Source: Shimazuella soli (GTDB lineage Bacteria; Bacillota; Bacilli; Thermoactinomycetales; Thermoactinomycetaceae). Taken from it: a stretch of 64,000 nucleotides of DNA. How positions within the stretch are numbered: the first letter of the stretch is position 1; the number at the start of each line of letters is the position of its first letter. The position numbers and the translations under genes were made by a program. Of the stretch, positions 11,148 through 57,249 are shown piece after piece. The DNA is taken from assembly GCF_022511585.1 (NCBI RefSeq), contig NZ_JAKWBN010000001.1, positions 170,269-234,268 on the forward strand, written 5' to 3'. A model generated the notes under the pieces. The model saw only the letters and a list, made by a program, of their open reading frames with translations, ran no database searches and was not told the origin of the DNA.

Positions 11148-11783
<636 letters not shown>

Positions 11784-11932: not shown

Positions 11933-14290
11933 CTACTCGGATTGATTCTCTTCTGATTTATTTGGTTTATTTGAGAATAATCCATTGCCATCAGTGGGGG
12001 CATTATTTGATCCGTTATTGGAAGATTCCTCATGCTTTTGGTCTTTTGTATGGTTAGGAGGAACAATACCTGTATTTTTATTAGGCTGCTGCTCTTTTTT
12101 GTTTTTCTGCTTTTTGTCTTTCTTTTTCTGTTCTTCTTTTGGATTACCTTGGTTAGCATCTGTTTCTGGTTGTTCTGGAGCTTGACGGTTACATTCAAAA
12201 CATTTATTTCCCAACGAACCACCAGGGTCTTGAAAGTCAGAGCCTTTTCGTATTAGGGTAGGGTTAGTTGCTGCTGCTGCTTTAAACAGCTTTACCCATG
12301 CTGTTTTCGCTAAATCATGGTCACCTTTTTTGTTGTAATCATAGCCAGACCATACACCCATAGATACTTCAGGAGTATATCCAACAAACCATAAATCATA
12401 TTGGTTGGAAGTTGTTCCTGTTTTACCAGCGATATTATATCCAGAAATTTGCCCAATAAATCCTTCTGCTGTACCACTTCTTACTACTTGTTTTAACATT
12501 CCTGTCAATTGATAAGCAGTCTGTGGTGTAAATACTTGTTTTGGCGCATTTTCTTTTGCATAGTCGTAGATAACATGTCCTTGAGAGTCCGTAATTTTAG
12601 AAATTAAGTGCGGCTTATTGAATTTTCCTCCATTTGCAATCATGGCATATCCACCAGTCATTTGTTCCACTGTATACCCATATGTAGCTCCGCCGAGTAC
12701 AAGTGATTCTCTATCTTTTTTATCTGGAGACATACCGATTGCTCGAATATAATCAAAGACTTTTTGTCTGCTACCTAATTTGTTTTCGGTTGCCCGGAAA
12801 ACCTTGATAGCTGGAATATTGTATGAGAACTGCAATGCTTTTGTAGCAGTTACTGCACCATGAAAATTGCCGCCATCGTTTTTATAATATATAGAACTGT
12901 TTTCTTTCTTTATAGGTTCATCAACGATAATCGAATTTGGTGAAATAACACCCTCATTAATAGCAGGTCCATATGCTAAGAGCGGTTTCATGGAAGAACC
13001 AGGTTGGTTTTGTGCATCAAAAGCATGGTCTTTTTGATTTTCTTCAAAATCTGTTCCTGCAAAGAATGAAAGGACAGAACCAGTTTTGTTTTCAATCATT
13101 ACAGAACCTATTTGCTCTCGAACCAAAACACCATTGATTTTCCGACGGGGGAAGTCTATATTTTTCACTGATTTATTCATACTCTCATAGAGTGCTTGAT
13201 CAACAGTAGAATATATCTTTAGCCCGCCTCCTCGTACTTTATCGCTATAGTATTTATAAGGTCGATCTTTTGCCTCTTCTGGATGGTATTTTTTATCCAG
13301 TTCTTGCAAGACTTTGATTGCCTCGCTTTCTACAGCAGAGATAATAAAAGGATAAGTTTCATATGCATTTTTAAAATCGCTTGGCTTGGCGAGAGATTTC
13401 GTAATGTCATATTTAGCAGCTTCATCTCGTTGCGCAGGAGTAATTTTTCCATTGGCAACCATGTAATCTAGAACCATTTTCATTCGTTTCATGCCGCGTT
13501 TAATTTTTGTTTTTTGTATTTCTGGATCATTGGAGAAAGGATTGTATTTGATAGGCTGCTGAACCATTCCAGCTATATAAGCTGCCTCTGGAAGCGTCAA
13601 ATCTTTTGCATCTTTATTAAAAAGTCCTCGTGCTGCGGCCATAACACCATACATATGTTTACCATTAGCACCTTTAAAAAAATATACACTATTGAGATAT
13701 TTTACTAAAATCTCGTCTTTTTTATAAAATTTCTCTAAGCGTAGGGCATTTACAATTTCTAGTGATTTTCGTTCTAAAGATCGCTCACGATTGCCTAAGA
13801 TTTCGTTTTTTACAAGCTGCTGTGTTAAGGTGCTACCACCAGTGACTACTTTACTACCAATAGCTTGTTGAAAAGCAGCACGTAATACAGCAGTGGGAAC
13901 AACACCATCATGAGTATAAAATTGTCTGTCTTCGGTTGAAAATAATGCATTTAGTAAATTAGGGCTTACGTCACTTGGTTTTCTGACTAAAACTCGGTCT
14001 TTCTCGTTGTTCATGGCTCCAATTAGTTTAGGCTTTCCTGTGGTAGCGTCGCGGAAGTAAGCATAACTGGTTTCCGACCAGCCATTTAAGTCTTCATCAA
14101 AATCTTTTTTCGTTCGTATTTTTTCATTTTTTGTATAAGCTGATACGATACCAGCACCCACTCCTAGTACAGCAACGGCAGCAACTAGGAAAATAATTAG
14201 TATGCTATAAAGTGTCACCAAGAATAAGTTCTTCTTCTTTCGTCTCTTGGGAGGCACTTGTCTATTATATTGTTCCTGCATTTCTTTCAT
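11933..14290 (-). CDS. class A penicillin-binding protein (glycosyltransferase + transpeptidase), paralog 1 of 3, with Q/N/K-rich C-terminal tail
   Basis: N-terminal signal anchor, then GT51 motifs (EDRQFYTHDGV, GGSTLTQQLVKN) and a transpeptidase domain (SSMKP, KTGTT). Own terminator at 11891-11929. Confidence 0.85.
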   Translation of the reverse strand: MKEMQEQYNRQVPPKRRKKKNLFLVTLYSILIIFLVAAVAVLGVGAGIVSAYTKNEKIRTKKDFDEDLNGWSETSYAYFRDATTGKPKLIGAMNNEKDRVLVRKPSDVSPNLLNALFSTEDRQFYTHDGVVPTAVLRAAFQQAIGSKVVTGGSTLTQQLVKNEILGNRERSLERKSLEIVNALRLEKFYKKDEILVKYLNSVYFFKGANGKHMYGVMAAARGLFNKDAKDLTLPEAAYIAGMVQQPIKYNPFSNDPEIQKTKIKRGMKRMKMVLDYMVANGKITPAQRDEAAKYDITKSLAKPSDFKNAYETYPFIISAVESEAIKVLQELDKKYHPEEAKDRPYKYYSDKVRGGGLKIYSTVDQALYESMNKSVKNIDFPRRKINGVLVREQIGSVMIENKTGSVLSFFAGTDFEENQKDHAFDAQNQPGSSMKPLLAYGPAINEGVISPNSIIVDEPIKKENSSIYYKNDGGNFHGAVTATKALQFSYNIPAIKVFRATENKLGSRQKVFDYIRAIGMSPDKKDRESLVLGGATYGYTVEQMTGGYAMIANGGKFNKPHLISKITDSQGHVIYDYAKENAPKQVFTPQTAYQLTGMLKQVVRSGTAEGFIGQISGYNIAGKTGTTSNQYDLWFVGYTPEVSMGVWSGYDYNKKGDHDLAKTAWVKLFKAAAATNPTLIRKGSDFQDPGGSLGNKCFECNRQAPEQPETDANQGNPKEEQKKKDKKQKNKKEQQPNKNTGIVPPNHTKDQKHEESSNNGSNNAPTDGNGLFSNKPNKSEENQSE

Positions 14291-14468
14291 TTTCCCCTCC
14301 TCATGTATGTAAGAATTATATCATAGGAGGTATTGGTTACATTTAGATCATTCTTGTGACGTTTTCCTTATGAAATAGAAATGTATTTATAATTCACCTA
14401 AAGGATAGAGGTTGATAAATCGAAAAACCCGCTCTTCTGATTGGAAGAAGCGGGTGATCGATGTAGGA

Positions 14469-16796
14469 TTAATTTTCTTTTCTTTTTTGAATGTTGCCAG
14501 GGAAAAGACCATTTTGATTTTGTGACGGTTGATTGCTATTAGTGGTATTGGATTGCCCTGTATTTGTGTTCGTTTGATTTGTTTGGATATTGGCACCTGC
14601 ATCGGTACTTGGTTGTTGCTGCTGCCCCTGTGTCTGTTGTCCGTTATCGGAGTTAGAGGAATCAGGGGATTGGCGATTACATTCAAAGCATTTTTCATCT
14701 GATGAGCCGCCGGGGTCTTGGAAATCAGTCCCTTTTGGTATCAGCGTAGGATTAGTAGATGCTGCCGCTTTAAACAGCTTCACCCATGCTGTTTTCGCTA
14801 AATCATGGTCACCTTTTTTGTTGTAATCATAGCCAGACCATACACCCATAGATACTTCAGGAGTGTACCCAACAAACCATAGGTCATATTGTTTGGAAGT
14901 TGTTCCTGTTTTACCAGCAATATTGTAACCAGAAATTTGTCCAATAAATCCTTCTGCTGTACCATTTCTTACTACTTGTTTTAACATTCCTGTCAATTGA
15001 TAAGCAGTCTGTGGTGTAAATACTTGTTTTGGCGCATTTTCTTTTGCATAGTCGTAGATAACATTTCCTTGAGAGTCCATAATTTTAGAAATCAAGTGCG
15101 GCTTATTGAATTTTCCTCCATTTGCAATCATGGCATATCCACCAGTCATTTGTTCCACTGTATACCCATATGTAGCTCCGCCGAGTACAAGTGATTCTCC
15201 ATCTTGTTTATCTGGAGACATACCGATTGCCCGTATATAATCAAAGACTTTTTGTTTGCCGCCTAATTTGTTTTCGGTTGCCCGGAAAACCTTGATGGCT
15301 GGAATATTATATGAGAACTGCAATGCTTTCGTAGCAGTTACTGCACCATGGAAATTGCCGCCATCGTTTTTATAATATATAGAACTGTTTTCTTTCTTTA
15401 TAGGTTCATCAACGATAATCGAATTTGGTGAAATAACACCCTCATTAATAGCAGGCCCATATGCTAAGAGAGGTTTCATTGAGGACCCTGGTTGGTTCAG
15501 AGCATCAAAAGCATGGTCTTTTTGGTTTTCATCAAAGTCTGTACCTGAAAAGAAGGAGAGCACATTTCCTGTCTTGTTTTCCACCATCACGGCACCAATT
15601 TGTTCTCGAATTAACTTTCCATTGATTTTACGGCGAGGAAAATCAAGATTTTTAACCGATTTGTTCATGTTATCGTAAAGTGCTTGGTCCACTGTAGAGT
15701 AGATTTTTAATCCGCCAACGTTCACTTTATCGCTGTAATATTTATAGGATCTTTCTTTTGCTTCGTCAGGATGATATTTTTTATCCATTTCTTGCAAGTC
15801 TTTTATCGCTTCACTTTCAATAGCAGAAATGACAAATGGATAGGTTACATAAGCGTTTTTAAAATCACTTGGTTTAGCAAATGATTTCGTGATGTCATAT
15901 TTCGCTGCCTCATCTCGTTGCTGAGGTGTAATTTTTCCGTTTGCTACCATGTTGTCGAGAACGAGCTTCATACGCTTTTTACCAAGTTTGATATTTTGTT
16001 TTTGTTTCTTTTCATCATTTGTAGAAAATGGATTGTAAGCATTAGGACGTTGACACATTCCAGCGATATAAGCTGCTTCTGGAAGGGTCAAATCTTTTGC
16101 GTCTTTGTTAAAAAGCCCGCGTGCTGCTGCCATTACCCCATACATGTGCTTACCATTCGCACCTTTGCCAAAATAAACACTGTTAAGATAACTAACAAAG
16201 ATCTCTTCTTTTGTATAATACTTTTCTAATCTCAAGGCATTTACAATTTCTAATGCTTTGCGCTCGAAGGATTTGTGTCTGTCTCCTAAGATTTCGTTTT
16301 TGACCAATTGTTGTGTTAAGGTACTACCACCTGTTGTTACTTCACTACCAGTTACTTGCTGCAAGGCTGCACGCAGGATAGAACTTGGTACAATCCCATT
16401 GTGAGAGTAAAACTGTCTGTCTTCGGTAGACAATATGGCATTTAACAAATTTTGATCCACATCGGACAATTTTCGAACGAGTACACGGTCTTTTTCATTG
16501 TGCATCGCACCGATTAGTTTAGGTTGTCCAGTAGTGGCGTCTCGAAAATAAGCATAGCTTGTTTCTGACCAGCCACTTAAGTCTTCATCATAATCTTTCT
16601 TGGTACGAATTTTTTCGTCTTTTGTGTACGCTGACACAATTCCAGACCCAACGCCAAAAATTGCAACTGCTGCAACTAAAACGAGGGTTACTATAACATA
16701 AAGTGTAACCAAGATGATTTTCTTTTTACTCCGTTTTTTCTTGGTGTTCACCGGTATATAATTTTGCTCCTGCATTTCTCCGATTTCCCTCCTCAT
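14469..16796 (-). CDS. class A penicillin-binding protein, paralog 2 (~85% identical to paralog 1), Q/N/T/S-rich tail
   Basis: Same motifs as paralog 1. Own terminator at 14429-14457. Confidence 0.85.
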   Translation of the reverse strand: MRREIGEMQEQNYIPVNTKKKRSKKKIILVTLYVIVTLVLVAAVAIFGVGSGIVSAYTKDEKIRTKKDYDEDLSGWSETSYAYFRDATTGQPKLIGAMHNEKDRVLVRKLSDVDQNLLNAILSTEDRQFYSHNGIVPSSILRAALQQVTGSEVTTGGSTLTQQLVKNEILGDRHKSFERKALEIVNALRLEKYYTKEEIFVSYLNSVYFGKGANGKHMYGVMAAARGLFNKDAKDLTLPEAAYIAGMCQRPNAYNPFSTNDEKKQKQNIKLGKKRMKLVLDNMVANGKITPQQRDEAAKYDITKSFAKPSDFKNAYVTYPFVISAIESEAIKDLQEMDKKYHPDEAKERSYKYYSDKVNVGGLKIYSTVDQALYDNMNKSVKNLDFPRRKINGKLIREQIGAVMVENKTGNVLSFFSGTDFDENQKDHAFDALNQPGSSMKPLLAYGPAINEGVISPNSIIVDEPIKKENSSIYYKNDGGNFHGAVTATKALQFSYNIPAIKVFRATENKLGGKQKVFDYIRAIGMSPDKQDGESLVLGGATYGYTVEQMTGGYAMIANGGKFNKPHLISKIMDSQGNVIYDYAKENAPKQVFTPQTAYQLTGMLKQVVRNGTAEGFIGQISGYNIAGKTGTTSKQYDLWFVGYTPEVSMGVWSGYDYNKKGDHDLAKTAWVKLFKAAASTNPTLIPKGTDFQDPGGSSDEKCFECNRQSPDSSNSDNGQQTQGQQQQPSTDAGANIQTNQTNTNTGQSNTTNSNQPSQNQNGLFPGNIQKRKEN

Positions 16797-16908
16797 ATGT
16801 ACGAATTATAACACAGCAAGTTTGAAATAAGTTTATAGATTTATTGTGACAATGTTTTCTTCGCGAAGGTAAATATACCCAAGAAGAAAAGCCCGCATAA
16901 GGGGCTTT

Positions 16909-19353
16909 TTAATTATTTACGATAGGGGAGTTGTTTCCTCCATCTTTTGGAGCACCATTCGAACCACCTGAACCATTGTTGTTATTACTAGTTCCATTGT
17001 CATTGGATGATCCTCCATTATTAGTGGTTGTTCCTCCATTAGAGCCATCCCCAGAGCCGCCATTCGAATCTCCGCCGTTTGATCCATCACCTGATCCACC
17101 GTCTGAACTAGGAGGCTTATCGCCATCATTTTCATCTTTGTTTGGTGGAGGAGTGGAAGGAGTAGAAGGTTTGGTAGATTCGGACGATTTGTGGTTATTT
17201 TTCTTTTTATTTTTAGATTTTTCTTTTGCTGCATTTGCATCTTCATAACTTTTCTTTTTGTCGCATTCAAATCCGCATTTTTCTGGTCCTATATCCCCAG
17301 GATTAACGAAATCTGTTCCTCTAGGAATGATATCTGCTGCTTGTTCAATTGCTGCGTTAAAAATGTTGGCCCATGCTTTTTTAGAAAACTTATCATCTGC
17401 ATACATGGGGAAGTTATAGTCGTAACCGCTCCATACCCCAATCGTTACTTCAGGTGTATAGCCGATGAACCATAAATCTTTTTCATCTGAAGTAGTCCCT
17501 GTTTTGCCTGCTACTTCATACCCGGAAGGAATCTGTGCTCCAATGTAAGCTGCTGTACCGCTGAGAACCGTTTTTAAGATGCCCGTCATTTGATAAGCTG
17601 TTTGTGGTGAGAAGACTCGTCTTGGATTTTGTTTTCTTTCAAATAAAACTTTTCCATCAGCATCCGTTACTTTAGAAATCATATAAGGTTTGTTGTACAA
17701 GCCTCCATTTGCAAGAGTAGAGAAGGCAGCTGTCATTTTTTCCACGGTATAGCCATTTGTTGCCCCGCCGATAGCAGCAGCTTCTCCATCTTTAGGAGAA
17801 GGAGGCAGATTTAATTCCTTCAGGTAATTAAATCCTTTTTGATGTCCTAAGGCGTTAAATGTTTTGATAGCAGGAATGTTATAGGACCATTTTAAAGCAT
17901 CTTGAACAGTTACAAATCCTTTATAACTTCCATTTGCATTTTTGTAATAACCCGAGCCATCACTCTTCATAATCGGTTCATCGAGTATTTGCGAATGAGG
18001 AGATACAATTCCTTCTTCTATCGCTGGCCCATAAACAAGCAAAGGTTTGATGGAAGAGCCTGGCTGTCTGGGTACTTGCAGTGCGTGATCCTTTTGGTTA
18101 TCGTCAAATGACTCTGTTCCAGAAACAAACGCTAAGACAGCACCAGTCTTATTATTGATAATGGTTGCCCCAAGCTGTTCATGTGTTTGTTTTCCGGCAT
18201 ACGTACGATTGTGGAATTCCAATCCTTTTGTTGCAGCTTTGTTAACAGCATTGTAAAGTCCTTCATCAATCGTCGTATAGAAGCGAAAACCTCCAGTAAC
18301 AGCTTTCTTTTTATATTCCTCTAAAGTAGAACGATATTTCCCTTCTTTACTGAGTTGTTCCACGTCGAGGTGATCCATTTCCATCAAAGTCTCTGCGGCT
18401 TCATCTTCCATAGCAAACATGATGAATGGATATTTCTCATAACCATTATCAAAATCAGACGGTTTGGCAAGTGACTTTTTGATGTTGAAATGGATTGCTT
18501 CATCGTATTGTTTTTTGGTGATTTTTTTATTTTGAAGCATTTCGGTTAATACTAGTTTTAATCGCTTCATGCCGCGTTTATAGTTTTTTGGATCTTCATC
18601 AAGCGGATTCAATGCATTTGGACGTTGAACCATACCAGCAATGTATGCAGCTTGAGCGAGATTGAGTTCTTTAGGAGTTTTGTTAAAAAGTCCTTTTGCA
18701 GCGGCTTGAACGCCATACATCTTTCGGCCATTTGCACCTTTTCCAAAAAAGACGCTATTCATATAGTAAACGAGAATTTCATCTTTGCTGTACATCTGTT
18801 CCATGCGAAGCGCTAAAACAATTTCATTTGCTTTTCGTTCTATATCTTTTTTGCGGTTTTTTAGAACGATATTTTTGACCAATTGCTGAGTCAGTGTACT
18901 ACCTCCAGTAGTGACTTCACTACCAACGGCTTGCTGAAAAGCGGCACGGATGATAGATCGAGGAACAATTCCTTTGTGTGTATAGAAATCTCTATCTTCC
19001 ACAGAGATAAATGCATTGACCAAATAAGGAGTTACATCACTGACTTTTTTGATCATGCCACGATCATTATCAAAACGCAGTGCCCCAATTGCCACTGGCT
19101 TTCCATTTTTATCTGTGTTTTGGAAGTAAGCATAACTGGTTTGAAATAAACTGTTTAGTTCTTTGTCAAAGTCTTGTTTGGTGCGGACTTTTTCATCTTT
19201 TACAACAGCAGAGACGATACCAGCCCCTGCACCAATTACGATTGCTGCTATTGTCAATGCAAGAATTACAATAATAAAGAATGTTCGTATACTCCAACGT
19301 ACAATTTGGCTGGTGTCTACATGGGGTTTCTTTGTCCATTTTTGTAGATTCAC
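16909..19353 (-). CDS. class A penicillin-binding protein, paralog 3 (more divergent), Gly/Ser/Asn/Asp-rich tail
   Basis: GT51 (EDRDFYTHKGI, GGSTLTQQLVKN) plus transpeptidase motifs. Terminator at 16888-16912. Confidence 0.85.
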   Translation of the reverse strand: MNLQKWTKKPHVDTSQIVRWSIRTFFIIVILALTIAAIVIGAGAGIVSAVVKDEKVRTKQDFDKELNSLFQTSYAYFQNTDKNGKPVAIGALRFDNDRGMIKKVSDVTPYLVNAFISVEDRDFYTHKGIVPRSIIRAAFQQAVGSEVTTGGSTLTQQLVKNIVLKNRKKDIERKANEIVLALRMEQMYSKDEILVYYMNSVFFGKGANGRKMYGVQAAAKGLFNKTPKELNLAQAAYIAGMVQRPNALNPLDEDPKNYKRGMKRLKLVLTEMLQNKKITKKQYDEAIHFNIKKSLAKPSDFDNGYEKYPFIMFAMEDEAAETLMEMDHLDVEQLSKEGKYRSTLEEYKKKAVTGGFRFYTTIDEGLYNAVNKAATKGLEFHNRTYAGKQTHEQLGATIINNKTGAVLAFVSGTESFDDNQKDHALQVPRQPGSSIKPLLVYGPAIEEGIVSPHSQILDEPIMKSDGSGYYKNANGSYKGFVTVQDALKWSYNIPAIKTFNALGHQKGFNYLKELNLPPSPKDGEAAAIGGATNGYTVEKMTAAFSTLANGGLYNKPYMISKVTDADGKVLFERKQNPRRVFSPQTAYQMTGILKTVLSGTAAYIGAQIPSGYEVAGKTGTTSDEKDLWFIGYTPEVTIGVWSGYDYNFPMYADDKFSKKAWANIFNAAIEQAADIIPRGTDFVNPGDIGPEKCGFECDKKKSYEDANAAKEKSKNKKKNNHKSSESTKPSTPSTPPPNKDENDGDKPPSSDGGSGDGSNGGDSNGGSGDGSNGGTTTNNGGSSNDNGTSNNNNGSGGSNGAPKDGGNNSPIVNN

Positions 19354-19399: not shown

Positions 19400-19650
19400 A
19401 AACAATAAGTGTTGAACTAAGCGAGTAGTCCCATGTATGTATCGTTCAGAGAGCTGGTGGAAAACAAAATGTATTTGTCGTTTTGTTAGGTGCGAACCAG
19501 TCGAACACATAGGATCAAATTACACTTAGGAAGCTTTGCGTTTAAACGCACGGGAGACCCGTTATATCTTATTCGAGTGGAGAACTTTTGGTTTTCAACA
19601 AGGGTGGTACCGCGGGCATAGCTCCGTCCCTTTTTAGGGACGGAGTTTTT
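19400..19650 (+). promoter_or_regulatory. T-box leader (tRNA-sensing riboswitch) preceding tyrS
   Basis: Conserved T-box sequence AGGGTGGTACCGCGG at 19599-19616, overlapping the terminator hairpin ctccgtccct/agggacggag + TTTTT at 19621-19649. The specifier loop was not resolved by eye. Confidence 0.7.
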
Positions 19651-32566: not shown

Positions 32567-32755
32567 AAAGGATAGAATCCCATGCATGGATTCTATCTTT
32601 TTTCAACAGTGGAATAATTGCACACCAATGCAACTTAACAGTAGGAAACTCATTATGAAAGTAGATTTCTGAATTTACAGTAAAATGATAAAGCATTGCC
32701 CCCCACAGACCAAGCTGGAATGCGGGGGGCAAGATGGAGATATTCGGTTGTTGTA

Positions 32756-33877
32756 CTACTGGTTGGTCTCAGCCTTGTCTCCGGCCGCCGCCAGTGCGCG
32801 GTTGCGCCGGACGGACGACCAGAAGGACCAGGCGATCAGCACGACGCCGACGAGGCCGGTGATGACCTCGTTGATCTCGTACTGGATGGTGACCATCAGG
32901 ATGACGGCCAGCGCCCCGATTGCGTAGTGAGCGCCGTGTTCGAGGTAGACGTAGTCGTCGAGCGTGCCCTCACGAACCAGGTACACCGTCAGCGACCTGA
33001 CGAACATGGCACCGATGCCGAGCCCGAGCACCATCAGCACGATATCGTTGGTGATGGCGAAGGCACCGATCACGCCGTCAAAGGAGAAGGACGCGTCGAT
33101 AACCTCCAGATAGAGGAACATGTAGAGCGCAGCCTGGCCGGCGAGCTGGATCACGGACTTCTTCTTGCCGGTACGGGCGGCCTCTTCCTCCTCCTCGTGC
33201 TCCCGCTCCTCCTCAGCCTCCAGCTTGTCCTCGAAGTAGCCGGACAGACCGGCGACGATCATGTAGATGATCAGACCGGCGATGCCGGCGATCAGGACCG
33301 CATGCGACTTGTTAGCGTACCCGTTGTGCTGGTGGGCGTGGGTCGCGAAGGTGAAGGAGGTGATCAAGAGTACGATCAGAGCGATGCAGACCGACAGCAT
33401 GTCTACCTTGCCGAGCTTGGCCAGAGGCTTCTCCAGCCAGTTGAGCCACTTGATGTCGCGATCTTCGAAGATGAAGTCGAGGAAGATCATCAAGAGGAAC
33501 ATCTCGCCGAACGCGCCGATCGCCGGGTGGGCGTCTGTCACGTACTGCTTGTACAGTTCCTTGTTGGTCAGCGCCAGATGAACCGCATCGATCGGGTTCA
33601 TATCGGCGCTGATCGACACGATTACGACCGGGAAGACCAGCCGCATGCCGAACACCGCGATCAGCACGCCGACCGAGAGGAAGATCTTCTGCCAGAAGGC
33701 ATTCATCTTCTTCAGGATTCCGGCGTTGATCACCGCGTTGTCGAACGACACGGAGATCTCCAGAATCGCGAGAATCGCCACGATCCCGAAAGCAGCCCAG
33801 CCTCCGTAAAAGGAGGCTGTGGTCAGACCGAACGCAGTGGCTACGATTGACCAACCGAATGTTCTGAGCAACAACAT
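32756..33877 (-). CDS. DUF475 (TerC-related) integral membrane protein, ~62% GC, likely horizontally acquired
   Basis: Multi-TM protein with an internal EEEREHEEEEE loop. GC3-biased in this frame. GGGAG RBS. It is followed by a GC-rich hairpin (gccccccg...cggggggc) without a T-run. Confidence 0.6.
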   Translation of the reverse strand: MLLLRTFGWSIVATAFGLTTASFYGGWAAFGIVAILAILEISVSFDNAVINAGILKKMNAFWQKIFLSVGVLIAVFGMRLVFPVVIVSISADMNPIDAVHLALTNKELYKQYVTDAHPAIGAFGEMFLLMIFLDFIFEDRDIKWLNWLEKPLAKLGKVDMLSVCIALIVLLITSFTFATHAHQHNGYANKSHAVLIAGIAGLIIYMIVAGLSGYFEDKLEAEEEREHEEEEEAARTGKKKSVIQLAGQAALYMFLYLEVIDASFSFDGVIGAFAITNDIVLMVLGLGIGAMFVRSLTVYLVREGTLDDYVYLEHGAHYAIGALAVILMVTIQYEINEVITGLVGVVLIAWSFWSSVRRNRALAAAGDKAETNQ

Positions 33878-37387: not shown

Positions 37388-38725
37388 ATGAACTTTCAAA
37401 ACGATTTACCTCTTCTTGCATACATGGCTAGAAAAATCAGATTGGATCAAGGGCTGACGTTGGAGAATTTAAAGGATGAAAATATTTCCGTTGGTACGAT
37501 CTCGAATATTGAAAATATGGAGGGAAATCCTTCGGAGAGTAAGGTCTATTATTTGTTTGAAAAGCTTGGATACGATCGGGAGGGAGTGGAGGAGTTAAAA
37601 CGGAGGGAATTGTTAGAGATAGAGACATTACGGCGGAAGTTGGAATGTGTGGAGAGTATGTTAGATCAGGATTTGCCCCAAGCAAAGGAGCTTCTCAGTA
37701 GGTATCGAGTTAAGGAGTACCATGCTTTATTTCCCTATTCTCATTACTTACAGGCATTATATTCCTTTATGCGTCAAGATATAGAAAGAGCCCAAAAACT
37801 TTGGAACAGGACATTGGATCTATGTAATAAACAGATACTATCAGTCAAGCAACATCTGGTAGCAAAATGTTATAACGATTTAAGCGCATGTTGCTATCAG
37901 CAAAATGAATTGCATAAAGCGATTTATTATGTAGAAAAAGGATTAAAACAGTTTCAAGAGGAAGAACAACATGAAATCAAGTACGCTTTAATCTGTAATT
38001 ATATTTTTTACTTGAACCAATCCGGACGTATTAAAGAAGCATATGAACGAATAAAACAAATCTGGTCTTCCATTCATCATATCCAAAGCATGCGCGTAAA
38101 ACTACATCTGTATAAATCTCACTGCATTCTATTGAAGAAAAGTAATAAACTGGATGAAGCAGAACAATGTTGTAAGGATAGCATTGAAATTACGCAACGA
38201 AATTTATCACAAAAGAGTCTATTGCTCGACTTTTTAAACATTCTAGGAAGTATCTATTTAAAAAAGCAAAACTATGAACTAGCATTAGAACATTTTGATC
38301 TTGTTTTAGTTTTAGATGCAGAACGAAAATCTCCACGACGAAATGCAGATTCCTATACCTATTTAACGAGTTTGTACACTACTCAAAATAAATGGACTAA
38401 AGCACAGGAGTGTATGGAACAGGCTCTTTTAATTGGTAGGGAGATTCAAGATGATGTTCGATTGGCAAAGATCTTAATTGTTTCGGGGATATGTATGAAA
38501 AAACAAGAACTCTACGAAAAGGCGATTTCCTATTTTAAAGAAGCAATTGCACTTTGTGACAAGCATCGATATCTAAAACAGAAGTGTACTGCTGTGTATG
38601 AATTGACTGGGTGTTTTGATAAAATCGATAATAGAAGTGAATTTTCTCAATGGGCAGAGGAGTTTTACTTTCTGCAAAGGAAATTGGGATGGAAGCAAGA
38701 GGAGGATTTTTATGACATACATTAA
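37388..38725 (+). CDS. RNPP-family quorum-sensing regulator (N-terminal XRE HTH + TPR repeats; NprR/PlcR/Rap-like)
   Basis: HTH (LAYMARKIRLDQGLTLENL...GTISNIENM) followed by ~9 TPR-like repeats. Terminator at 38784-38818. Confidence 0.65.
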   Translation: MNFQNDLPLLAYMARKIRLDQGLTLENLKDENISVGTISNIENMEGNPSESKVYYLFEKLGYDREGVEELKRRELLEIETLRRKLECVESMLDQDLPQAKELLSRYRVKEYHALFPYSHYLQALYSFMRQDIERAQKLWNRTLDLCNKQILSVKQHLVAKCYNDLSACCYQQNELHKAIYYVEKGLKQFQEEEQHEIKYALICNYIFYLNQSGRIKEAYERIKQIWSSIHHIQSMRVKLHLYKSHCILLKKSNKLDEAEQCCKDSIEITQRNLSQKSLLLDFLNILGSIYLKKQNYELALEHFDLVLVLDAERKSPRRNADSYTYLTSLYTTQNKWTKAQECMEQALLIGREIQDDVRLAKILIVSGICMKKQELYEKAISYFKEAIALCDKHRYLKQKCTAVYELTGCFDKIDNRSEFSQWAEEFYFLQRKLGWKQEEDFYDIH

Positions 38726-38844
38726 TCATTACAAAAATTTTATGGGTGATGATGATGAAACTGTAAGATAATAAAATGGATTTAAAAGACACCACTTCTT
38801 CACGGAATGGTGTCTTTTAAATCTAGAGAAACTTTTAGAGATGT

Positions 38845-39558
38845 TTAGTGTTTTTTAACCGGCATAAAGATATGATTAGAAACAATTTGCAATGGGTTGG
38901 TCTGATAATTAGTCAATATAATCGTAGAAAAACATCGACCATCCGTTTCACGGTTAAAAAGTCGAATATTTCGTATTTGACTAAGAAAATGAGCAGTACC
39001 ATAACTTCCCATCGCATGAATACCGGCTATTAGTATAAAAGTATCTTCTCTTTCTCTATGAAAACGAAGTCTGCCTAAGTATGCTATATCTTTTTGTTCT
39101 GGCTGCTCTTTATCCATCGGAGATATTAATTCATTCTGACTTGATAGATCAACAAATTTCCATTGCCCACTCCCATCTTCACGAAATTGATAATAGGGGT
39201 CTATTTCAAGAAGTTTTTTTATTGCTGGGGACGTCTTTGGTCCACATATTACAATATCTCCAATAGTAAAATTCATATCAGTATCATTAGGTAGATAGGA
39301 TAGGCTAGGTATTGCTCCGTGTTCTCGAACAAACTCAGCTAAAGTATTTGCTGCTAAAAAATCTTCAGAGGCGATAACAGGCAGTTCTCTGCCAAGATTA
39401 CGAGAAGGGAAGAAAATGTTTACTTTTTGAGATCCAAAAAATTTTTCCACACTTTTCTTTCTCCCCATTTTAGAAATCGTACGAATCAACCAACCTCCAA
39501 TAATAGCTATATTAATCGTTAAAGAAATTACTAATTCAATGTTATCTAAAATTGGCAT
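38845..39558 (-). CDS. hypothetical protein, N-terminal TM helix + uncharacterised domain, downstream of the PP2C-like gene
   Basis: 237 aa, probably in an operon with 39570-40438. I could not assign the soluble domain. Confidence 0.45.
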   Translation of the reverse strand: MPILDNIELVISLTINIAIIGGWLIRTISKMGRKKSVEKFFGSQKVNIFFPSRNLGRELPVIASEDFLAANTLAEFVREHGAIPSLSYLPNDTDMNFTIGDIVICGPKTSPAIKKLLEIDPYYQFREDGSGQWKFVDLSSQNELISPMDKEQPEQKDIAYLGRLRFHREREDTFILIAGIHAMGSYGTAHFLSQIRNIRLFNRETDGRCFSTIILTNYQTNPLQIVSNHIFMPVKKH

Positions 39559-39569
39559 GTGAAACTCCT

Positions 39570-40438
39570 TTATGTATTTTGGATCATGAGCATGGATGCA
39601 TCGTCATGTTTGTGAAACCGCGGGTACTTTTGCCCATTTGGATCAGCATATTCAATCGCTCTGATGCGTTCTATTACCTGTATCGCAGGAGTTTCGGCTA
39701 AATAACGAAGCAGATTTTCCCACGAAGAAATTACTTCAAATGTGTCCACTAAACGACTTAGTCCATCTGTCATTAAAGCGATTGTCCAGTTTTTTTGGGA
39801 GGGAAGCGGTTTTTCTCCAATCAGCGCATGTTCTGCTGCATCTGGATCAAGGGAGACGATAAAGTAACCATCTTTATGATTTCGCAATTGATTTTGTAAT
39901 GCGAGTAATGTTTGTTTTTGTTGCTTTATTTCAGGGGACATATAGCCATGTCCTTCTTTTAATAGCGAACTAATGGAGGAGCGAATAGGAGATCCGATTT
40001 GTTGTAAACGCCGATCACAGATATGGTCTAACGTAGAGTTGGTGTAAATACATAAAGAACTGTCACCCAGAACAAAATATTCTAATTTTTGTTCGGATAA
40101 TCGAATCATAGCAAGCGTACTACCTGCTATTCTTGGATGGATGGATGGATGGATGGATGGATGGATGGATGGGATTCTATTATCAATTGAGAAATATTCT
40201 CAATTGATGTTCGGACAATTTGCTTTAAGGGGGTATTGGGAGAAGCGTTTTGTAATGTTTCCATAAGGATTTGGTTGAATAATTGTACATACATCTTTGT
40301 ATTTATTTGTGAAGTGCTTGATTTTGGCATAGATGCGCCATCTAAAACCCAAAAAACATTATCATACATCCCTATTAGGTCTTCATTGTATAACTTTTCG
40401 GGGTTTTTGTTCGATAAGGTTGAGATCAAATAATTCAT
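39570..40438 (-). pseudogene. PP2C (PPM)-like phosphatase gene interrupted in-frame by a (GGAT)9 tract; currently two ORFs (103 aa + 179 aa)
   Basis: The N-terminal part (FWVLDGASMP) and C-terminal part (LMTDGLSRLVD) resemble PP2C motifs. The repeat encodes HPSI units. One extra GGAT unit (or loss of two) would fuse the two ORFs with no intervening stop. Confidence 0.5.
40135..40170. repeat. tetranucleotide microsatellite (GGAT)9 inside coding sequence
   Basis: Counted directly from the sequence. Confidence 0.95.
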
Positions 40439-40756
40439 TTTATCTACTCCACTGTTTGGTTATCATTCTGTGATTATTATACAATTTAAACAAGTTTGTG
40501 AAAAGTGAATTGAATGTCTTATGACATAAGTTGTCCACTTTTGAAAAATCACTTTCATATAAAAATGGCTTTTACATGTACGACATAGGGATGGTTCTCT
40601 TATCTCATTATGAGCAAAATGATTTCAACCATAAGAAAAGCCCACATAAAAAGAAACAGATTTTTATTATTTCATCTGTCTCCTTTTTTGGGAGCATATC
40701 AATTTTTGGAGTGTAAAAAATCTATCTTACGGTGTGAATTACCTAAAAGTTAAAGA

Positions 40757-40930: not shown

Positions 40931-41413
40931 TTATAATCCTAAGAATACACGGGTAGCCGACCAAAGCAAAGCCGCGTATTCATAGGGGATGGATAAGATC
41001 TTATCGACTGGAAACAGCGGTGAGATCTTATTTATTGTCTGGGTAGAACCATTTTCGATTGCTTTCCCGACAATGGTTGTCAGGATCATTGTTCCAACCC
41101 AATGTAACACGAATATCCACCATTTACCGGAGTTCGCTTTTTTAAGAGCTTCCTCGGCTTTGATGGCCCGGTTTTCCCACTCGTTTTTTTCTGCTTGCTC
41201 CTTTTGGATCTCGGCTTTTGTAGCAGCGAGTTCCTGTAAGGTCGAATGAAGATGATCCTCGGCTTTCAGTGCCCGATTTTCCCATTCATTCCTATCAGCG
41301 AGCAGTGAGTCGATTTTGGCGTCTTTCGCCTCGATCGTTTTTACCAGGTGTGTTATTCCCTCTACTTCTTGACGTGACTGTTGGTTAACAACAACTTTCG
41401 TTTGTTTTTCCAT
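40931..41413 (-). CDS. coiled-coil protein with C-terminal TM segment (internal NEWENRA(L/I)KAE repeat)
   Basis: 160-aa ORF with AAAGGGGGAAA RBS, lying entirely between the inverted repeats. Confidence 0.5.
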   Translation of the reverse strand: MEKQTKVVVNQQSRQEVEGITHLVKTIEAKDAKIDSLLADRNEWENRALKAEDHLHSTLQELAATKAEIQKEQAEKNEWENRAIKAEEALKKANSGKWWIFVLHWVGTMILTTIVGKAIENGSTQTINKISPLFPVDKILSIPYEYAALLWSATRVFLGL

Positions 41414-41440: not shown

Positions 41441-41494
41441 GATCAGTCACGTCGCACACGGCCAGATGCTAAGCATTGGCTACCGTCCACAGTG
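41441..41494. repeat. inverted repeat, right arm (contains an extra palindromic 20-nt insertion)
   Basis: See the left arm. It is followed by a ~150-bp GC-rich structured segment (41495-41640). Confidence 0.7.
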
Positions 41495-41882
41495 TCTGCC
41501 CCAGGCAGACGAAAAGCTAAGGTAAAACTGTGCAGGGATGGCGAAAGCCCTCTACCTGCGCTGCTATCGCTGGTTCCTGCCAAAGGCAGCTGTTTTCACG
41601 ATAACGTGATCGAGTAAACATGCAGCTCCACTCAGCCGAGAACATTATGTTCGATCAGGCGAGGAGCACATATTTCTATCAGATCAAAACAGACATACTT
41701 TTATCTAATCATAATGTGATTATATTTTCAATATTAGCTAAAATGGGAATCCGTTGCGTTAAAAACAGATGGTCTTCCACACCTCAAGGATTTCTTGATC
41801 ATCACTTTTCTGAGTAGCCGTTTTATTTGGTATAAACATTCGTGTAAACAAAAGAACAAATGGAGAATTTAAATTTTACATC

Positions 41883-41972
41883 ATGGAAGATTTGTTTGAC
41901 GAAGGATATGAAGGATTAACGAAAGATAAAACGATGGATGAAGTGGCATTAACCAAAAAAGAAGAAGAATAA
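41883..41972 (+). CDS. possible small acidic peptide gene (29 aa)
   Basis: MEDLFDEGYEGLTKDKTMDEVALTKKEEE, followed by a terminator at 41975-42010. The RBS spacing is poor. Confidence 0.25.
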   Translation: MEDLFDEGYEGLTKDKTMDEVALTKKEEE

Positions 41973-41993
41973 CAAAAAGAGGACATGTTGATG

Positions 41994-42036
41994 CTGTCCT
42001 CTTTTTGTTGTAATGCGACAGGAGAACCGTCCCCTT
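41994..42036. repeat. ~41-bp direct repeat, right copy
   Basis: See 40757-40797. Confidence 0.6.
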
Positions 42037-42105
42037 GTCGCATATGTCTATTTACATACCATTATTCTCGCTCGGCGACTGCCCCAATGGACAGCCGCCT
42101 TGATC

Positions 42106-42334
42106 TCAGTTGGTGATCATTCCTTTGATCAATTCCCTGAGCTTGAACCATGCCTCTCGCTCAGGAAAGCCATGGGTTCCATTGATTGTGACCATGGAGA
42201 CATCATTCCCGAACTTGCTTTGCTGGGTTTGGAGGCTGTGTGAGTTGAAGACACCGTCATTTGCCGACTGGATGAAGATCAGGTCTTGGACAGCCCATTG
42301 CAGCTCCAGTAATAATCGCCACTTTTCCACTTAG
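42106..42334 (-). pseudogene. gene remnants: SDR N-terminus (MSRLSGKVAIITGA) fused out of frame to a C-terminal fragment of an alpha/beta hydrolase-like protein
   Basis: Read from the minus strand. No intact ORF. Confidence 0.35.
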
Positions 42335-42399
42335 ACGACTCATATAGAAACATCCTTTCCTGATGAAATTATTTATCTTTGAACTTTGAGAAAAAAGAT

Positions 42400-43158
42400 T
42401 TAGAGAGTTAAGCCTCCATCGACCACAACAGTGGAACCAGTCATATAACTCGCTTTTTCTGAAGCTAAATAAGCAACCATTTCTGCAAGTTCTTCAGGCG
42501 CAGCATAGCGACCCAATCTCATATTTGGTATTTCTTCAGGGATATAGCCGCCTTTTTCAAATTGCTTCGTAACACTAGCTGTTAATGCCGTTTGCACCCC
42601 TCCTGGACAGAGTGCATTAATGCGAATTCCTTTTTTGGCATATTCTAATGCAGCCCCCTTTGTTAGGCCTACCACGGCATGTTTGCTTGCTGAGTATACT
42701 GCAACGCTATGTTCTGCGCGGATTCCTGCTGTAGAAGCAGTGTTTATAATAGAGCCATACCCTTGCTTGTCCATCACTTTTAATACATATTTCAATCCAA
42801 GGAATATCCCTTTCACATTGACAGACATGATGCGGTCAAATTCTGCTTCTTCGATCGATGTGAAAGGAGCAAACTTCTGGATAATGCCTGCATTGTTGAA
42901 AAATACATCGATGCGTCCATATGTTTTAACAGCCTTATTCACATAGTTTTGCACATCTTCACTCTTCGACACATCTGCTTGAATGAAGATCCCTTCTCCA
43001 CCTTGTTCCTTCACAAGTTTTAACGTTTCTTCTCCTGTTTTTTGATTGAAATCAACTAAAACGACTTTTGCGCCGATCGATGCTAATTTAATGCTACTGG
43101 CTCGTCCAATTCCACTTCCTGCTCCGGTGATAACAGCAACTTTGTTTGCTAGTTCCAT
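42400..43158 (-). CDS. short-chain dehydrogenase/reductase (SDR) family oxidoreductase
   Basis: TGAGSGIG Rossmann motif, NNAG, and catalytic YSASK. Confidence 0.8.
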   Translation of the reverse strand: MELANKVAVITGAGSGIGRASSIKLASIGAKVVLVDFNQKTGEETLKLVKEQGGEGIFIQADVSKSEDVQNYVNKAVKTYGRIDVFFNNAGIIQKFAPFTSIEEAEFDRIMSVNVKGIFLGLKYVLKVMDKQGYGSIINTASTAGIRAEHSVAVYSASKHAVVGLTKGAALEYAKKGIRINALCPGGVQTALTASVTKQFEKGGYIPEEIPNMRLGRYAAPEELAEMVAYLASEKASYMTGSTVVVDGGLTL

Positions 43159-55484: not shown

Positions 55485-55925
55485 ATGCATAAGCTAAGAG
55501 ATATTATGTCAACAGATATCGCTCATCTTTCTCCAGATGACAATCTGTTCGAAGCGGCAACCATGATGAGAGATGAAAATGTCGGGATGATTCCTGTTTG
55601 TGAAAATGGGCAATTAAAAGGGATCATCACAGACCGCGATATCGTCACTCGCGGAATTGCAGAAAAAAAACCGAACTCCTCTACATTACATGATATCATG
55701 TCATCTCAATTGGTATATGGTACACCGGAAATGTCAGTTGATGAAGCCGCACAGAAGATGGCAGAAGCACAAATTAGACGTCTGCCTATTGTCGATCAAA
55801 ATCAGTTGATTGGTGTTGTATCTTTAGGAGATTTGGCGGTTCGCTCACCTTATCAAAACGAGGCAAGTGATGCTTTAAGCGAAATATCTGAAACACATAA
55901 TCCTCATACTTCAAATGATTTATAA
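55485..55925 (+). CDS. CBS-pair domain protein
   Basis: Two CBS motifs. Terminator at 55934-55968. Confidence 0.7.
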   Translation: MHKLRDIMSTDIAHLSPDDNLFEAATMMRDENVGMIPVCENGQLKGIITDRDIVTRGIAEKKPNSSTLHDIMSSQLVYGTPEMSVDEAAQKMAEAQIRRLPIVDQNQLIGVVSLGDLAVRSPYQNEASDALSEISETHNPHTSNDL

Positions 55926-56249: not shown

Positions 56250-56640
56250 AAGTGTAGTGTGTAGGATACGTCGTCCTGTGTACCGCTAGTAGGCGTGGAT
56301 ATATAAAACTTCTGGTGGCTCAGAGAGCCAACCCAGTGGCGCGGATGCGCCACAACTCGGTGGCGGGAGAGCCGCCATAAACTCGGTGGCGGGAGAGTCG
56401 CCACAAACTCAGTGGCGCTGAGCGCCACTAAGGGGGCGGGAGCCCCAAAATCCCGCCTGGGGCTTAGGCCCCAGCCTACCCGCTTCGGCGGGTAGGAAGG
56501 GCGGGATGCCAGCACCAAAATAACGGTCGTGGCCCTCCAGGCCACGACCGGAGCGGACCGTCTATTCTCATAGCTGTATTTTAGCTATGAGAATAGACAC
56601 CACTCACCGCCCTCGATCCGTCGGGGGCACCCACTTTTTA
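56250..56640. repeat. GC-rich array of short palindromic hairpins, including four tandem ~25-bp units (consensus aacTCRGTGGCGsgaGaGyCGCCAcaa)
   Basis: Stems gtggcgc/gcgccac, tggcgg/ccgcca x2 and agtggcgc/gcgccact. Further on there are tggggc/gcccca, acccgc-ttcg-gcgggt, a 10-bp ggtcgtggcc/ggccacgacc and a 12-bp attctcatagct/agctatgagaat. Confidence 0.8.
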
Positions 56641-56772: not shown

Positions 56773-57249
56773 TTGACAACACAACATGCTAAGCAAGTCC
56801 AACAGGAACAAGCTTATGATCAATTGGCGCAAAAACATCGTCCAAAACCAAAGGTTTTAGCAAACTGTTTAAAAGCATTTTTCGTAGGTGGTTTTATTTG
56901 TATCATCGGTGAAGCTTTAAACATGCTCTATGGTAAAGGATTTGGATATCCAAAAGATGTGGCAAGCAGTATGACAGTTGCTACTATCGTCATTATTACA
57001 TGTCTCTTGACCGGTTTTGGGGTATACGACAACATTGGGCAGTGGGCTGGAGCAGGTACAGCGGTGCCAGTTACTGGTTTTGCGAATTCGATCGCCTCTG
57101 CTGCTTTGGAGCATAAATCAGAAGGTTTTGTGCTCGGTGTAGGTGGAAATATGTTTAAATTAGCTGGTTCTGTTATCGTTTGGGGTGTATTCTCTGCCTT
57201 TGTTGTCAGTTTGATTCGGACATTGGTCATCATGTCGATAGGAGGCTAA
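56773..57249 (+). CDS. spoVAC: stage V sporulation protein AC
   Basis: 158 aa. The membrane-protein sequence closely matches the SpoVAC family. Confidence 0.85.
   Translation: MTTQHAKQVQQEQAYDQLAQKHRPKPKVLANCLKAFFVGGFICIIGEALNMLYGKGFGYPKDVASSMTVATIVIITCLLTGFGVYDNIGQWAGAGTAVPVTGFANSIASAALEHKSEGFVLGVGGNMFKLAGSVIVWGVFSAFVVSLIRTLVIMSIGG

Follow-up and report, generated by a model that had tools for sequence, protein, structure and literature searches.

A tetranucleotide repeat within a PP2C-type phosphatase gene of Shimazuella soli forms a candidate phase-variable locus

The genome of Shimazuella soli encodes a predicted PP2C-type Ser/Thr phosphatase whose gene carries a perfect tetranucleotide repeat and is out of frame in the sequenced strain, AN120528. 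It is likely (a probability of roughly 70%) that this gene is a genuine contingency locus whose phase varies by slipped-strand mispairing at the repeat. The initial annotation had proposed phase variation, and the proposal is supported, as a candidate, by an orthologous site in another lineage at which the tract has a different length while the gene is otherwise intact. The window, which is the whole 64-kb stretch of DNA that was analysed, contains the following components of the locus.

40473..40504, minus strand: promoter-like site (TTTTCA, 17-nt spacer, TATAAT, with TG before the TATAAT box)
39570..40438, minus strand: whole PP2C_2-family gene, out of frame at nine repeat units, recognised by frame arithmetic, the PF13672 match, the fold and contiguous homologues
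40127..40438, minus strand: 5' ORF of the present OFF state, 103 aa, preceded by a ribosome-binding site (GGAG) and encoding NED and LDGA
40134..40172, minus strand: (CCAT)9+CCA tract, a perfect tetranucleotide repeat in the coding sequence and the proposed slippage site, with the in-frame product (HPSI)n
39570..40109, minus strand: 3' ORF of the present OFF state, 179 aa (MK805_01140, 'hypothetical protein' at NCBI)
38845..39558, minus strand: partner gene, 237 aa, encoding an N-terminal transmembrane helix and a conserved α/β domain of no Pfam family
38779..38823, no strand assigned: hairpin flanked by A and T runs (-24.1 kcal/mol, z = -7.6), between the operon and the regulator gene
37388..38725, plus strand: HTH_3 and TPR regulator gene, 445 aa, convergent to the PP2C/partner pair

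The perfect tract within coding sequence described by the initial annotation was found both by Tandem Repeats Finder, which reports a single period-4 array at 40134-40172 (9.8 copies, 100% matches, no indels), and by our own script, which reads it on the minus strand as (CCAT)9+CCA, a 39-nt perfect run beginning 266 nt past the ATG and occupying nt 267-305 of the gene. The two ORFs described there are present at 40438..40127 (103 aa) and 40109..39570 (179 aa). When the gene was rebuilt with 5-13 units, a single ORF resulted at 7, 10 and 13 units (286, 290 and 294 aa, respectively), and every other unit number in this range gave an ORF cut at 99-108 aa. The addition of one unit or the removal of two thus fuses the ORFs into a product of about 290 aa, as had been claimed. 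Both wrong frames meet a TAG, beginning 7 or 14 nt past the tract.

Such a tract stands nearly alone in its surroundings. The pattern (CCAT)6 was matched in none of 100 dinucleotide-preserving shuffles of the window. A scan for simple sequence repeats (SSRs) with units of 1, 2, 4, 5, 7 and 8 nt (at least four units, at least six for dinucleotides and at least nine bases for homopolymers) returned (CCAT)9 as the sole match in the window besides a T9 run at 11745-11753; dinucleotide runs reaching six units were absent. The same scan of about 137 kb of related loci returned just an orthologous tract in a metagenome contig (L001, see below) and one A9 run, also in L001.

Several lines of evidence indicate that the two ORFs are parts of one gene. 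The reconstructed 290-aa protein matches the Pfam family PF13672 (PP2C_2) with 39 bits, against a gathering cut-off of 24, over residues 28-252 and profile positions 26-199 of 209, so that the match extends across both halves and spans the junction. AlphaFold2, run with a 13-sequence alignment, predicts one compact domain (mean pLDDT 89, pTM 0.88) with low confidence only at residues 38-41 and 96-103; the latter form the repeat-encoded loop that joins helix 71-89 to strand 107-115. Protein searches recovered PP2C homologues of 273-295 aa as contiguous ORFs. The N- and C-terminal parts are therefore not unrelated genes: the Pfam match crosses the junction, the model is a single domain and the homologues are contiguous. 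Of the divergent PP2C/PPM motifs named in the initial annotation, FWVLDGASMP and LMTDGLSRLVD are both present, and the assignment to PP2C is supported by PF13672 and by the fold. At least 90% of 13 homologues share D33-G34, D226-G227 and D280-D281, and residues 18-20 are NED; these presumably correspond to the metal-binding motifs of PP2Cs (xED, DGxG, DG and DD/DN). The model and the Pfam match together identify 40438..39570 as one gene for a PP2C-type Ser/Thr phosphatase, the activity of which is predicted.

The predicted fold is that of known phosphatases. Foldseek against the PDB placed PstP (1txo) first with E 2.8e-12, followed by Stp1, MspP, tPphA and PPM1K, each with probability 1.0. The subfamily to which the S. 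soli protein belongs has NED, LDGA, TDG and HDDA as conserved acidic motifs. Unlike the solved PP2Cs, with which it shares the fold and the PP2C_2 match above the gathering score, this subfamily has no sequence-level match to them and is distinct: in a profile search of PDB sequences the sole match, to a designed repeat protein, was spurious. NCBIfam gave only sub-threshold matches.

The gene appears to be equipped for expression together with its neighbour. The promoter core, CTTTTCACAAACTTGTTTAAATTGTATAAT, is near-invariant in five Shimazuella-type loci, including both that bear the repeat, while the sequence 5' of the core is unalignable among the five. Downstream, the partner gene starts 11 nt past the PP2C stop codon behind a strong AAGGAG ribosome-binding site, and in L001 and in an uncultured relative, L004, the two genes overlap. 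Co-transcription with this 237-aa partner, which the initial annotation had suggested, is consistent with the adjacency of the two genes in every locus examined and with a natural fusion protein, and the partner gene is probably co-transcribed with the PP2C gene. The transmembrane anchor claimed for the partner was recovered as an N-terminal transmembrane helix. The hairpin at 38779..38823 is probably a bidirectional terminator that serves both the operon and the convergent regulator gene.

The regulator gene (37388-38725) encodes an HTH_3 domain at residues 15-63, beyond which several TPR families match, with the best stretches within residues 282-391. This is the layout of RNPP-type peptide-sensing regulators (Rap/NprR/PlcR-like), in which an N-terminal HTH precedes a C-terminal TPR array. 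Such regulators would have a cognate gene for a small secreted signalling peptide beside them; in S. kribbensis a 37-aa ORF is located upstream of the regulator. Synteny of the regulator with the pair extends to all Shimazuella-type loci in which the contig reaches past the partner gene, and the regulator may be functionally linked to the pair.

S. kribbensis (L002) and two uncultured relatives (L004 and L010) have orthologues of the PP2C gene that are unbroken ORFs of 281-290 aa without a repeat at the site, and these are the contiguous, repeat-free homologues that the initial annotation had proposed to look for. A collagen-like gene lies upstream of the locus in S. kribbensis. A second tract allele occurs in L001 (JGI metagenome contig 3300042625, Ga0466730_094336), whose orthologue is more distant, shares 62% amino acid identity with that of S. 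soli and contains (CCAT)14+CCA at L001 4940-4998, where the run again begins 266 nt past the ATG. This gene was likewise split by the gene caller, with a 179-aa 3' ORF (P0005). Unit numbers of 13 or 16 would restore its frame; with 14 it is OFF, in the other of the two wrong frames from S. soli. The sequence just 3' of the tract is nearly the same in both (17 of 18 nt identical), with the TAG in each wrong frame kept, and both tracts are 100% pure. The initial annotation had held that a uniform repeat length would speak against phase variation; between lineages the length is variable, 9 units in S. soli and 14 in L001.

The countable tract alleles are two, from different species-level lineages, and neither of the two is in frame; were length random with respect to frame, both alleles would be OFF with a probability of about 4/9. 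A Logan contig (L009, run SRR14710893) carries the L001 allele and ends inside the tract, at a k-mer assembly break, which leaves its units uncountable. A scan of genome contigs with the family alignment recovered S. kribbensis only, with no repeat there, and a scan of metagenome contigs recovered one 5' fragment cut by the contig end (L007). Since both scans missed the source genome, L001 and L004, the collections are incomplete for this clade.

Comparison of the S. soli and L001 genes gives evidence of purifying selection. At 62% amino acid identity and 34% nucleotide divergence, synonymous sites are saturated (pS 0.71), and pN/pS is 0.21 over the 88 codons 5' of the tract and 0.38 over the 188 that lie 3' of it. 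Differences at codon positions 1, 2 and 3 amount to 0.32, 0.10 and 0.55 in the N-terminal half and 0.31, 0.21 and 0.53 in the C-terminal half, that is, in the order 3>1>2 in both. Of 2000 replicates in which the S. soli gene was evolved neutrally to the observed L001 divergence, none was free of stop codons. No lesion besides the tract was found in either of these two genes. The partner gene is intact, with omega of 0.05-0.10.

The strongest competing explanation is that the gene is an ordinary pseudogene, the repeat being a mutational hazard through which a dispensable gene was lost independently and permanently in both lineages. Such an outcome is unlikely, although it retains an appreciable share of the probability. 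It agrees with the out-of-frame state of both known repeat-bearing alleles and with the much faster evolution of the PP2C, which has 52-62% amino acid identity where the partner has 81-90%; a remnant of the module that has no PP2C (L015) indicates, in addition, that the module can decay. Against permanent loss stand the pN/pS of 0.21-0.38, the coding pattern of substitution and the absence of a stop-free replicate from the neutral simulations, as well as the conservation of the promoter, the ribosome-binding site and the partner gene in the absence of any further lesion in either lineage. The tract, moreover, predates the split of S. soli and L001 and is yet perfect in both. The lack of other lesions, the constraint and the old, still-perfect tract together imply that each lineage has spent most of its history in frame, as a switching locus would predict, and the persistence and purity of the tract at 9-14 units through such divergence favour a maintained switch. 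The choice is between very recent independent inactivation at the same hypermutable site and switching, and these two are ends of one continuum.

A miscount of units in assembly or consensus, with a true number of 10 or 7, an intact gene and split ORFs that are an artefact, is improbable. The S. soli genome is a draft assembled with CLC from MGI short reads at a low coverage of about 12x (PMC9774768); repeats are error-prone, and k-mer assemblers do break at the tract, as in L009. However, single short reads span a tract of 39 nt, and an independent JGI metagenome assembly of another lineage also has an out-of-frame length. The structural features of a contingency locus would remain even if the count were wrong.

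It is very improbable that the ORFs are two functional genes, that an HPSI linker is kept at the protein level or that a programmed frameshift bypasses the break: NCBI does annotate the 179-aa ORF as a protein, and translation of the repeat would give a regular HPSI peptide, but that ORF has neither NED nor DGA and would be an incomplete PP2C domain, and protein-level selection explains neither 100% nucleotide purity nor out-of-frame lengths. No Shine-Dalgarno sequence is seen before the ATG of the 179-aa ORF, and this ATG is not conserved in L001, where the start of the 3' ORF lies 26 codons further downstream in the alignment; the ORF is therefore unlikely to be a gene of its own. Two separate genes were rejected on the junction-spanning Pfam match, the single-domain model and this non-conserved internal start, and programmed frameshifting was rejected because S. 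soli and L001 would require shifts of opposite sign.

In the proposed phase-variable switch, the (CCAT)n tract would gain or lose units during replication by slipped-strand mispairing, and slippage in vivo would have to be frequent and reversible. Only unit numbers with n = 1 mod 3 (7, 10, 13 and so on) would yield the full-length PP2C, the other frames ending at a TAG; S. soli AN120528 (n = 9) would be in one OFF frame and the L001 lineage (n = 14) in the other. In the ON state the (HPSI)n insertion of variable length would lie in a surface loop that connects a helix to the β strand with the conserved PSST-like motif, where a change of length may be tolerated. Because the partner gene starts 11 nt past the PP2C stop and overlaps it in L001 and L004, a switch to OFF may also lower translation of the partner. 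A clonal population would then be a mixture of cells with and without the PP2C/partner signalling module.

The operon of S. soli is a mosaic when compared with that of S. kribbensis. Nucleotide identity is 85-91% in the partner gene and falls to 53-62% over the first ~650 nt of the PP2C gene, the change being located at about 39750, before returning to 71-76% over the promoter. The dS between these species is 0.49 for the partner gene and saturated for the PP2C gene. Neighbour-joining (NJ) trees are in strongly supported conflict: S. soli groups with L001 in 195 of 200 bootstraps of the PP2C tree, and in 184 of 200 bootstraps of the partner tree it is placed together with S. kribbensis, L004 and L010. 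Between S. soli and L001, dS is alike for the PP2C and partner genes (2.2 and 2.4). In the simplest reading the repeat-bearing allele would be as old as the deepest split sampled, and the kribbensis group would later have taken another 5' allele; transfer of the 5' PP2C allele in the reverse direction is the alternative.

The partner gene belongs to a large family. An exhaustive profile search yielded 623 representative clusters at 50% identity, while Pfam (which the initial annotation had recommended for this protein), NCBIfam and PADLOC assigned no family to the S. soli member, and neither it nor the PP2C matched PADLOC-DB v2 at E <= 1. No phage homologues of the partner were found, and an exact look-up of the S. 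soli partner protein returned no record. Among 47 sampled members, an N-terminal HTH was assigned to HTH_3 in 17, to HTH_31 in 15 and to Sigma70_r4 in 9, and in many of those sampled it occupies the position of the membrane helix of the Shimazuella protein. One natural protein of 565 aa (P0115) combines an HTH, the α/β domain of the partner and the PP2C subfamily, and this fusion links the products of the two genes functionally.

Members of this PP2C subfamily are always found beside, and in that one case fused to, the α/β partner, often on plasmids or integrative elements. The pair adjoins genes for a relaxase, a coupling protein and a resolvase in one locus (L012), is part of an integrative element of an actinobacterium, which also encodes integrase, Rep_1 and FtsK, in another (L013), and adjoins type I restriction-modification genes in three more (L010, L011 and L014), the one hint of a role in anti-phage defence. 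These plasmid, integrative-element and restriction-modification contexts characterise the module as a conserved accessory pair that is often mobile, and suggest that it may act in regulation or in conflict.

The records of Streptomyces plasmids label the partner 'sigma-70 family RNA polymerase sigma factor', and they call the PP2C homologue an 'integrase'. The 'integrase' genes at 4538-5410 of one such locus (L016, NZ_CP108516.1) and 4674-5522 of another (L017, NZ_CP010408.1) match the PP2C family profile with E ~1e-68 and directly follow a gene with the partner domain, and the label thus looks like a propagated misannotation. A 151-aa cut-down homologue of the partner, without an adjacent PP2C, is encoded at L015 1230-1685 (P0021) and is apparently what remains of a decayed module in another genome; having no PP2C, it was set aside as uninformative on the repeat.

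Other features of the window were recorded as observations in their own right. The T9 run at 11745-11753 (A9 on the coding strand) lies near the 5' end of a 211-aa minus-strand ORF (11148-11783) with no Pfam match, in which about 32 copies of a 9-nt repeat, TCATCGTCG, extend over 11224-11516. Three tandem paralogues of class A penicillin-binding proteins, with transglycosylase and transpeptidase domains, are encoded on the minus strand at 11933-19353, and a T-box leader on the plus strand (19403-19634, 97 bits) adjoins them. The region 32696-33877 has a GC content of about 50%, compared with about 39%, and contains triplet repeats of CCT type together with long ORFs on each strand, with no Pfam match. 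Between the genes for a coiled-coil membrane protein (40931-41413) and an SDR protein (42400-43158), there are about 950 nt (41443-42400) in which ORFs do not exceed 76 aa and Rfam has no match; a gene in decay or a non-coding element that has escaped recognition could account for them. Finally, about seven GC-rich hairpins are arranged in tandem at 56310-56500, in the intergenic region between a CBS-domain gene (55485-55925) and spoVAC (56773-57249); this array includes a section with a 26-nt period (56329-56418), folds as RNA with -115.5 kcal/mol (z = -7.4) and matched no Rfam family at the gathering threshold.

At the level of sequence, the S. soli locus displays every characteristic of an SSR-mediated phase-variable locus; the mechanism is known, and it is the host organism and the class of gene that are unusual. 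The tetranucleotide contingency loci of Haemophilus influenzae, among them mod, lic1 and lgtC (De Bolle et al. 2000, cited in PMC11868660), are the best-known cases of such translational phase variation, and they share with the S. soli locus a perfect 4-nt repeat of about nine or more units in the 5' third of the coding sequence, an ON state in one frame of three, a tract length that varies between lineages and purifying selection on the rest of the gene. H. influenzae is a host-adapted Gram-negative bacterium with an SSR-rich genome and its loci are genes for surface structures or restriction-modification, whereas S. soli is a free-living soil member of the Thermoactinomycetaceae, Bacillales, its target is a predicted cytoplasmic PP2C with a membrane-anchored partner, and its tract appears to be a solitary SSR in the 64 kb checked.

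The statement of the initial annotation that tetranucleotide coding repeats are rare in Bacillales holds, with one precedent in the icaC gene of Staphylococcus aureus (PMC4117637), which is also a Bacillales gene with a tetranucleotide repeat inside the coding sequence. There, expansion or contraction of a (TTTA)n tract of 4-6 units truncates the protein in a reversible, RecA-independent manner, with switching at less than 1 per 45,000 divisions (PMC4117637). Unlike icaC, the S. soli and L001 genes have 9 and 14 units, in the range of the classic high-frequency loci, and while icaC varies among clinical isolates of one species, the tract described here is conserved between species. The cmrRST system of Clostridioides difficile (bioRxiv 10.1101/690230) resembles the proposed switch in that stochastic control acts on a signalling module of a spore-forming Firmicute rather than on a surface antigen, but it is a two-component system that switches by site-specific inversion of a promoter element, and the S. 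soli locus would operate by slippage of a coding repeat in a PP2C gene.

To our knowledge, studies of phase variation driven by repeats have dealt almost exclusively with pathogens adapted to a host. The S. soli locus provides a clean candidate in a soil bacterium, in which a gene for a signalling phosphatase contains a tract of classic length that is conserved between species. A gap in knowledge for bacteria of soil and ocean is explicitly pointed out in a 2025 review of the field (PMC11868660). A broader interpretation can be offered tentatively, at less than even odds: the tract would be an ancient hypermutable switch kept by selection across species of a free-living, spore-forming soil bacterium through saturating synonymous divergence, placing under stochastic control a PP2C/sensor-domain module that is elsewhere borne by plasmids or integrative elements. 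The mosaic operon, in which the 5' two-thirds of the PP2C gene would derive from another, repeat-bearing allele lineage than the partner gene, would reflect allele replacement under diversifying selection. The module under the switch may act in conflict or defence, or may regulate mobile elements.

The analysis also draws attention to an uncharacterised but widespread pair, composed of a divergent PP2C and an α/β-domain protein, usually with an HTH, that occurs commonly on plasmids of Streptomyces. Genes of the repeat-bearing kind are split or dropped by annotation pipelines, and the S. soli record holds the 3' ORF only. If the broader interpretation is correct, the biology of contingency loci would reach soil Firmicutes and intracellular signalling enzymes, and the locus would give an entry to the function of a two-gene module that has several hundred representatives.
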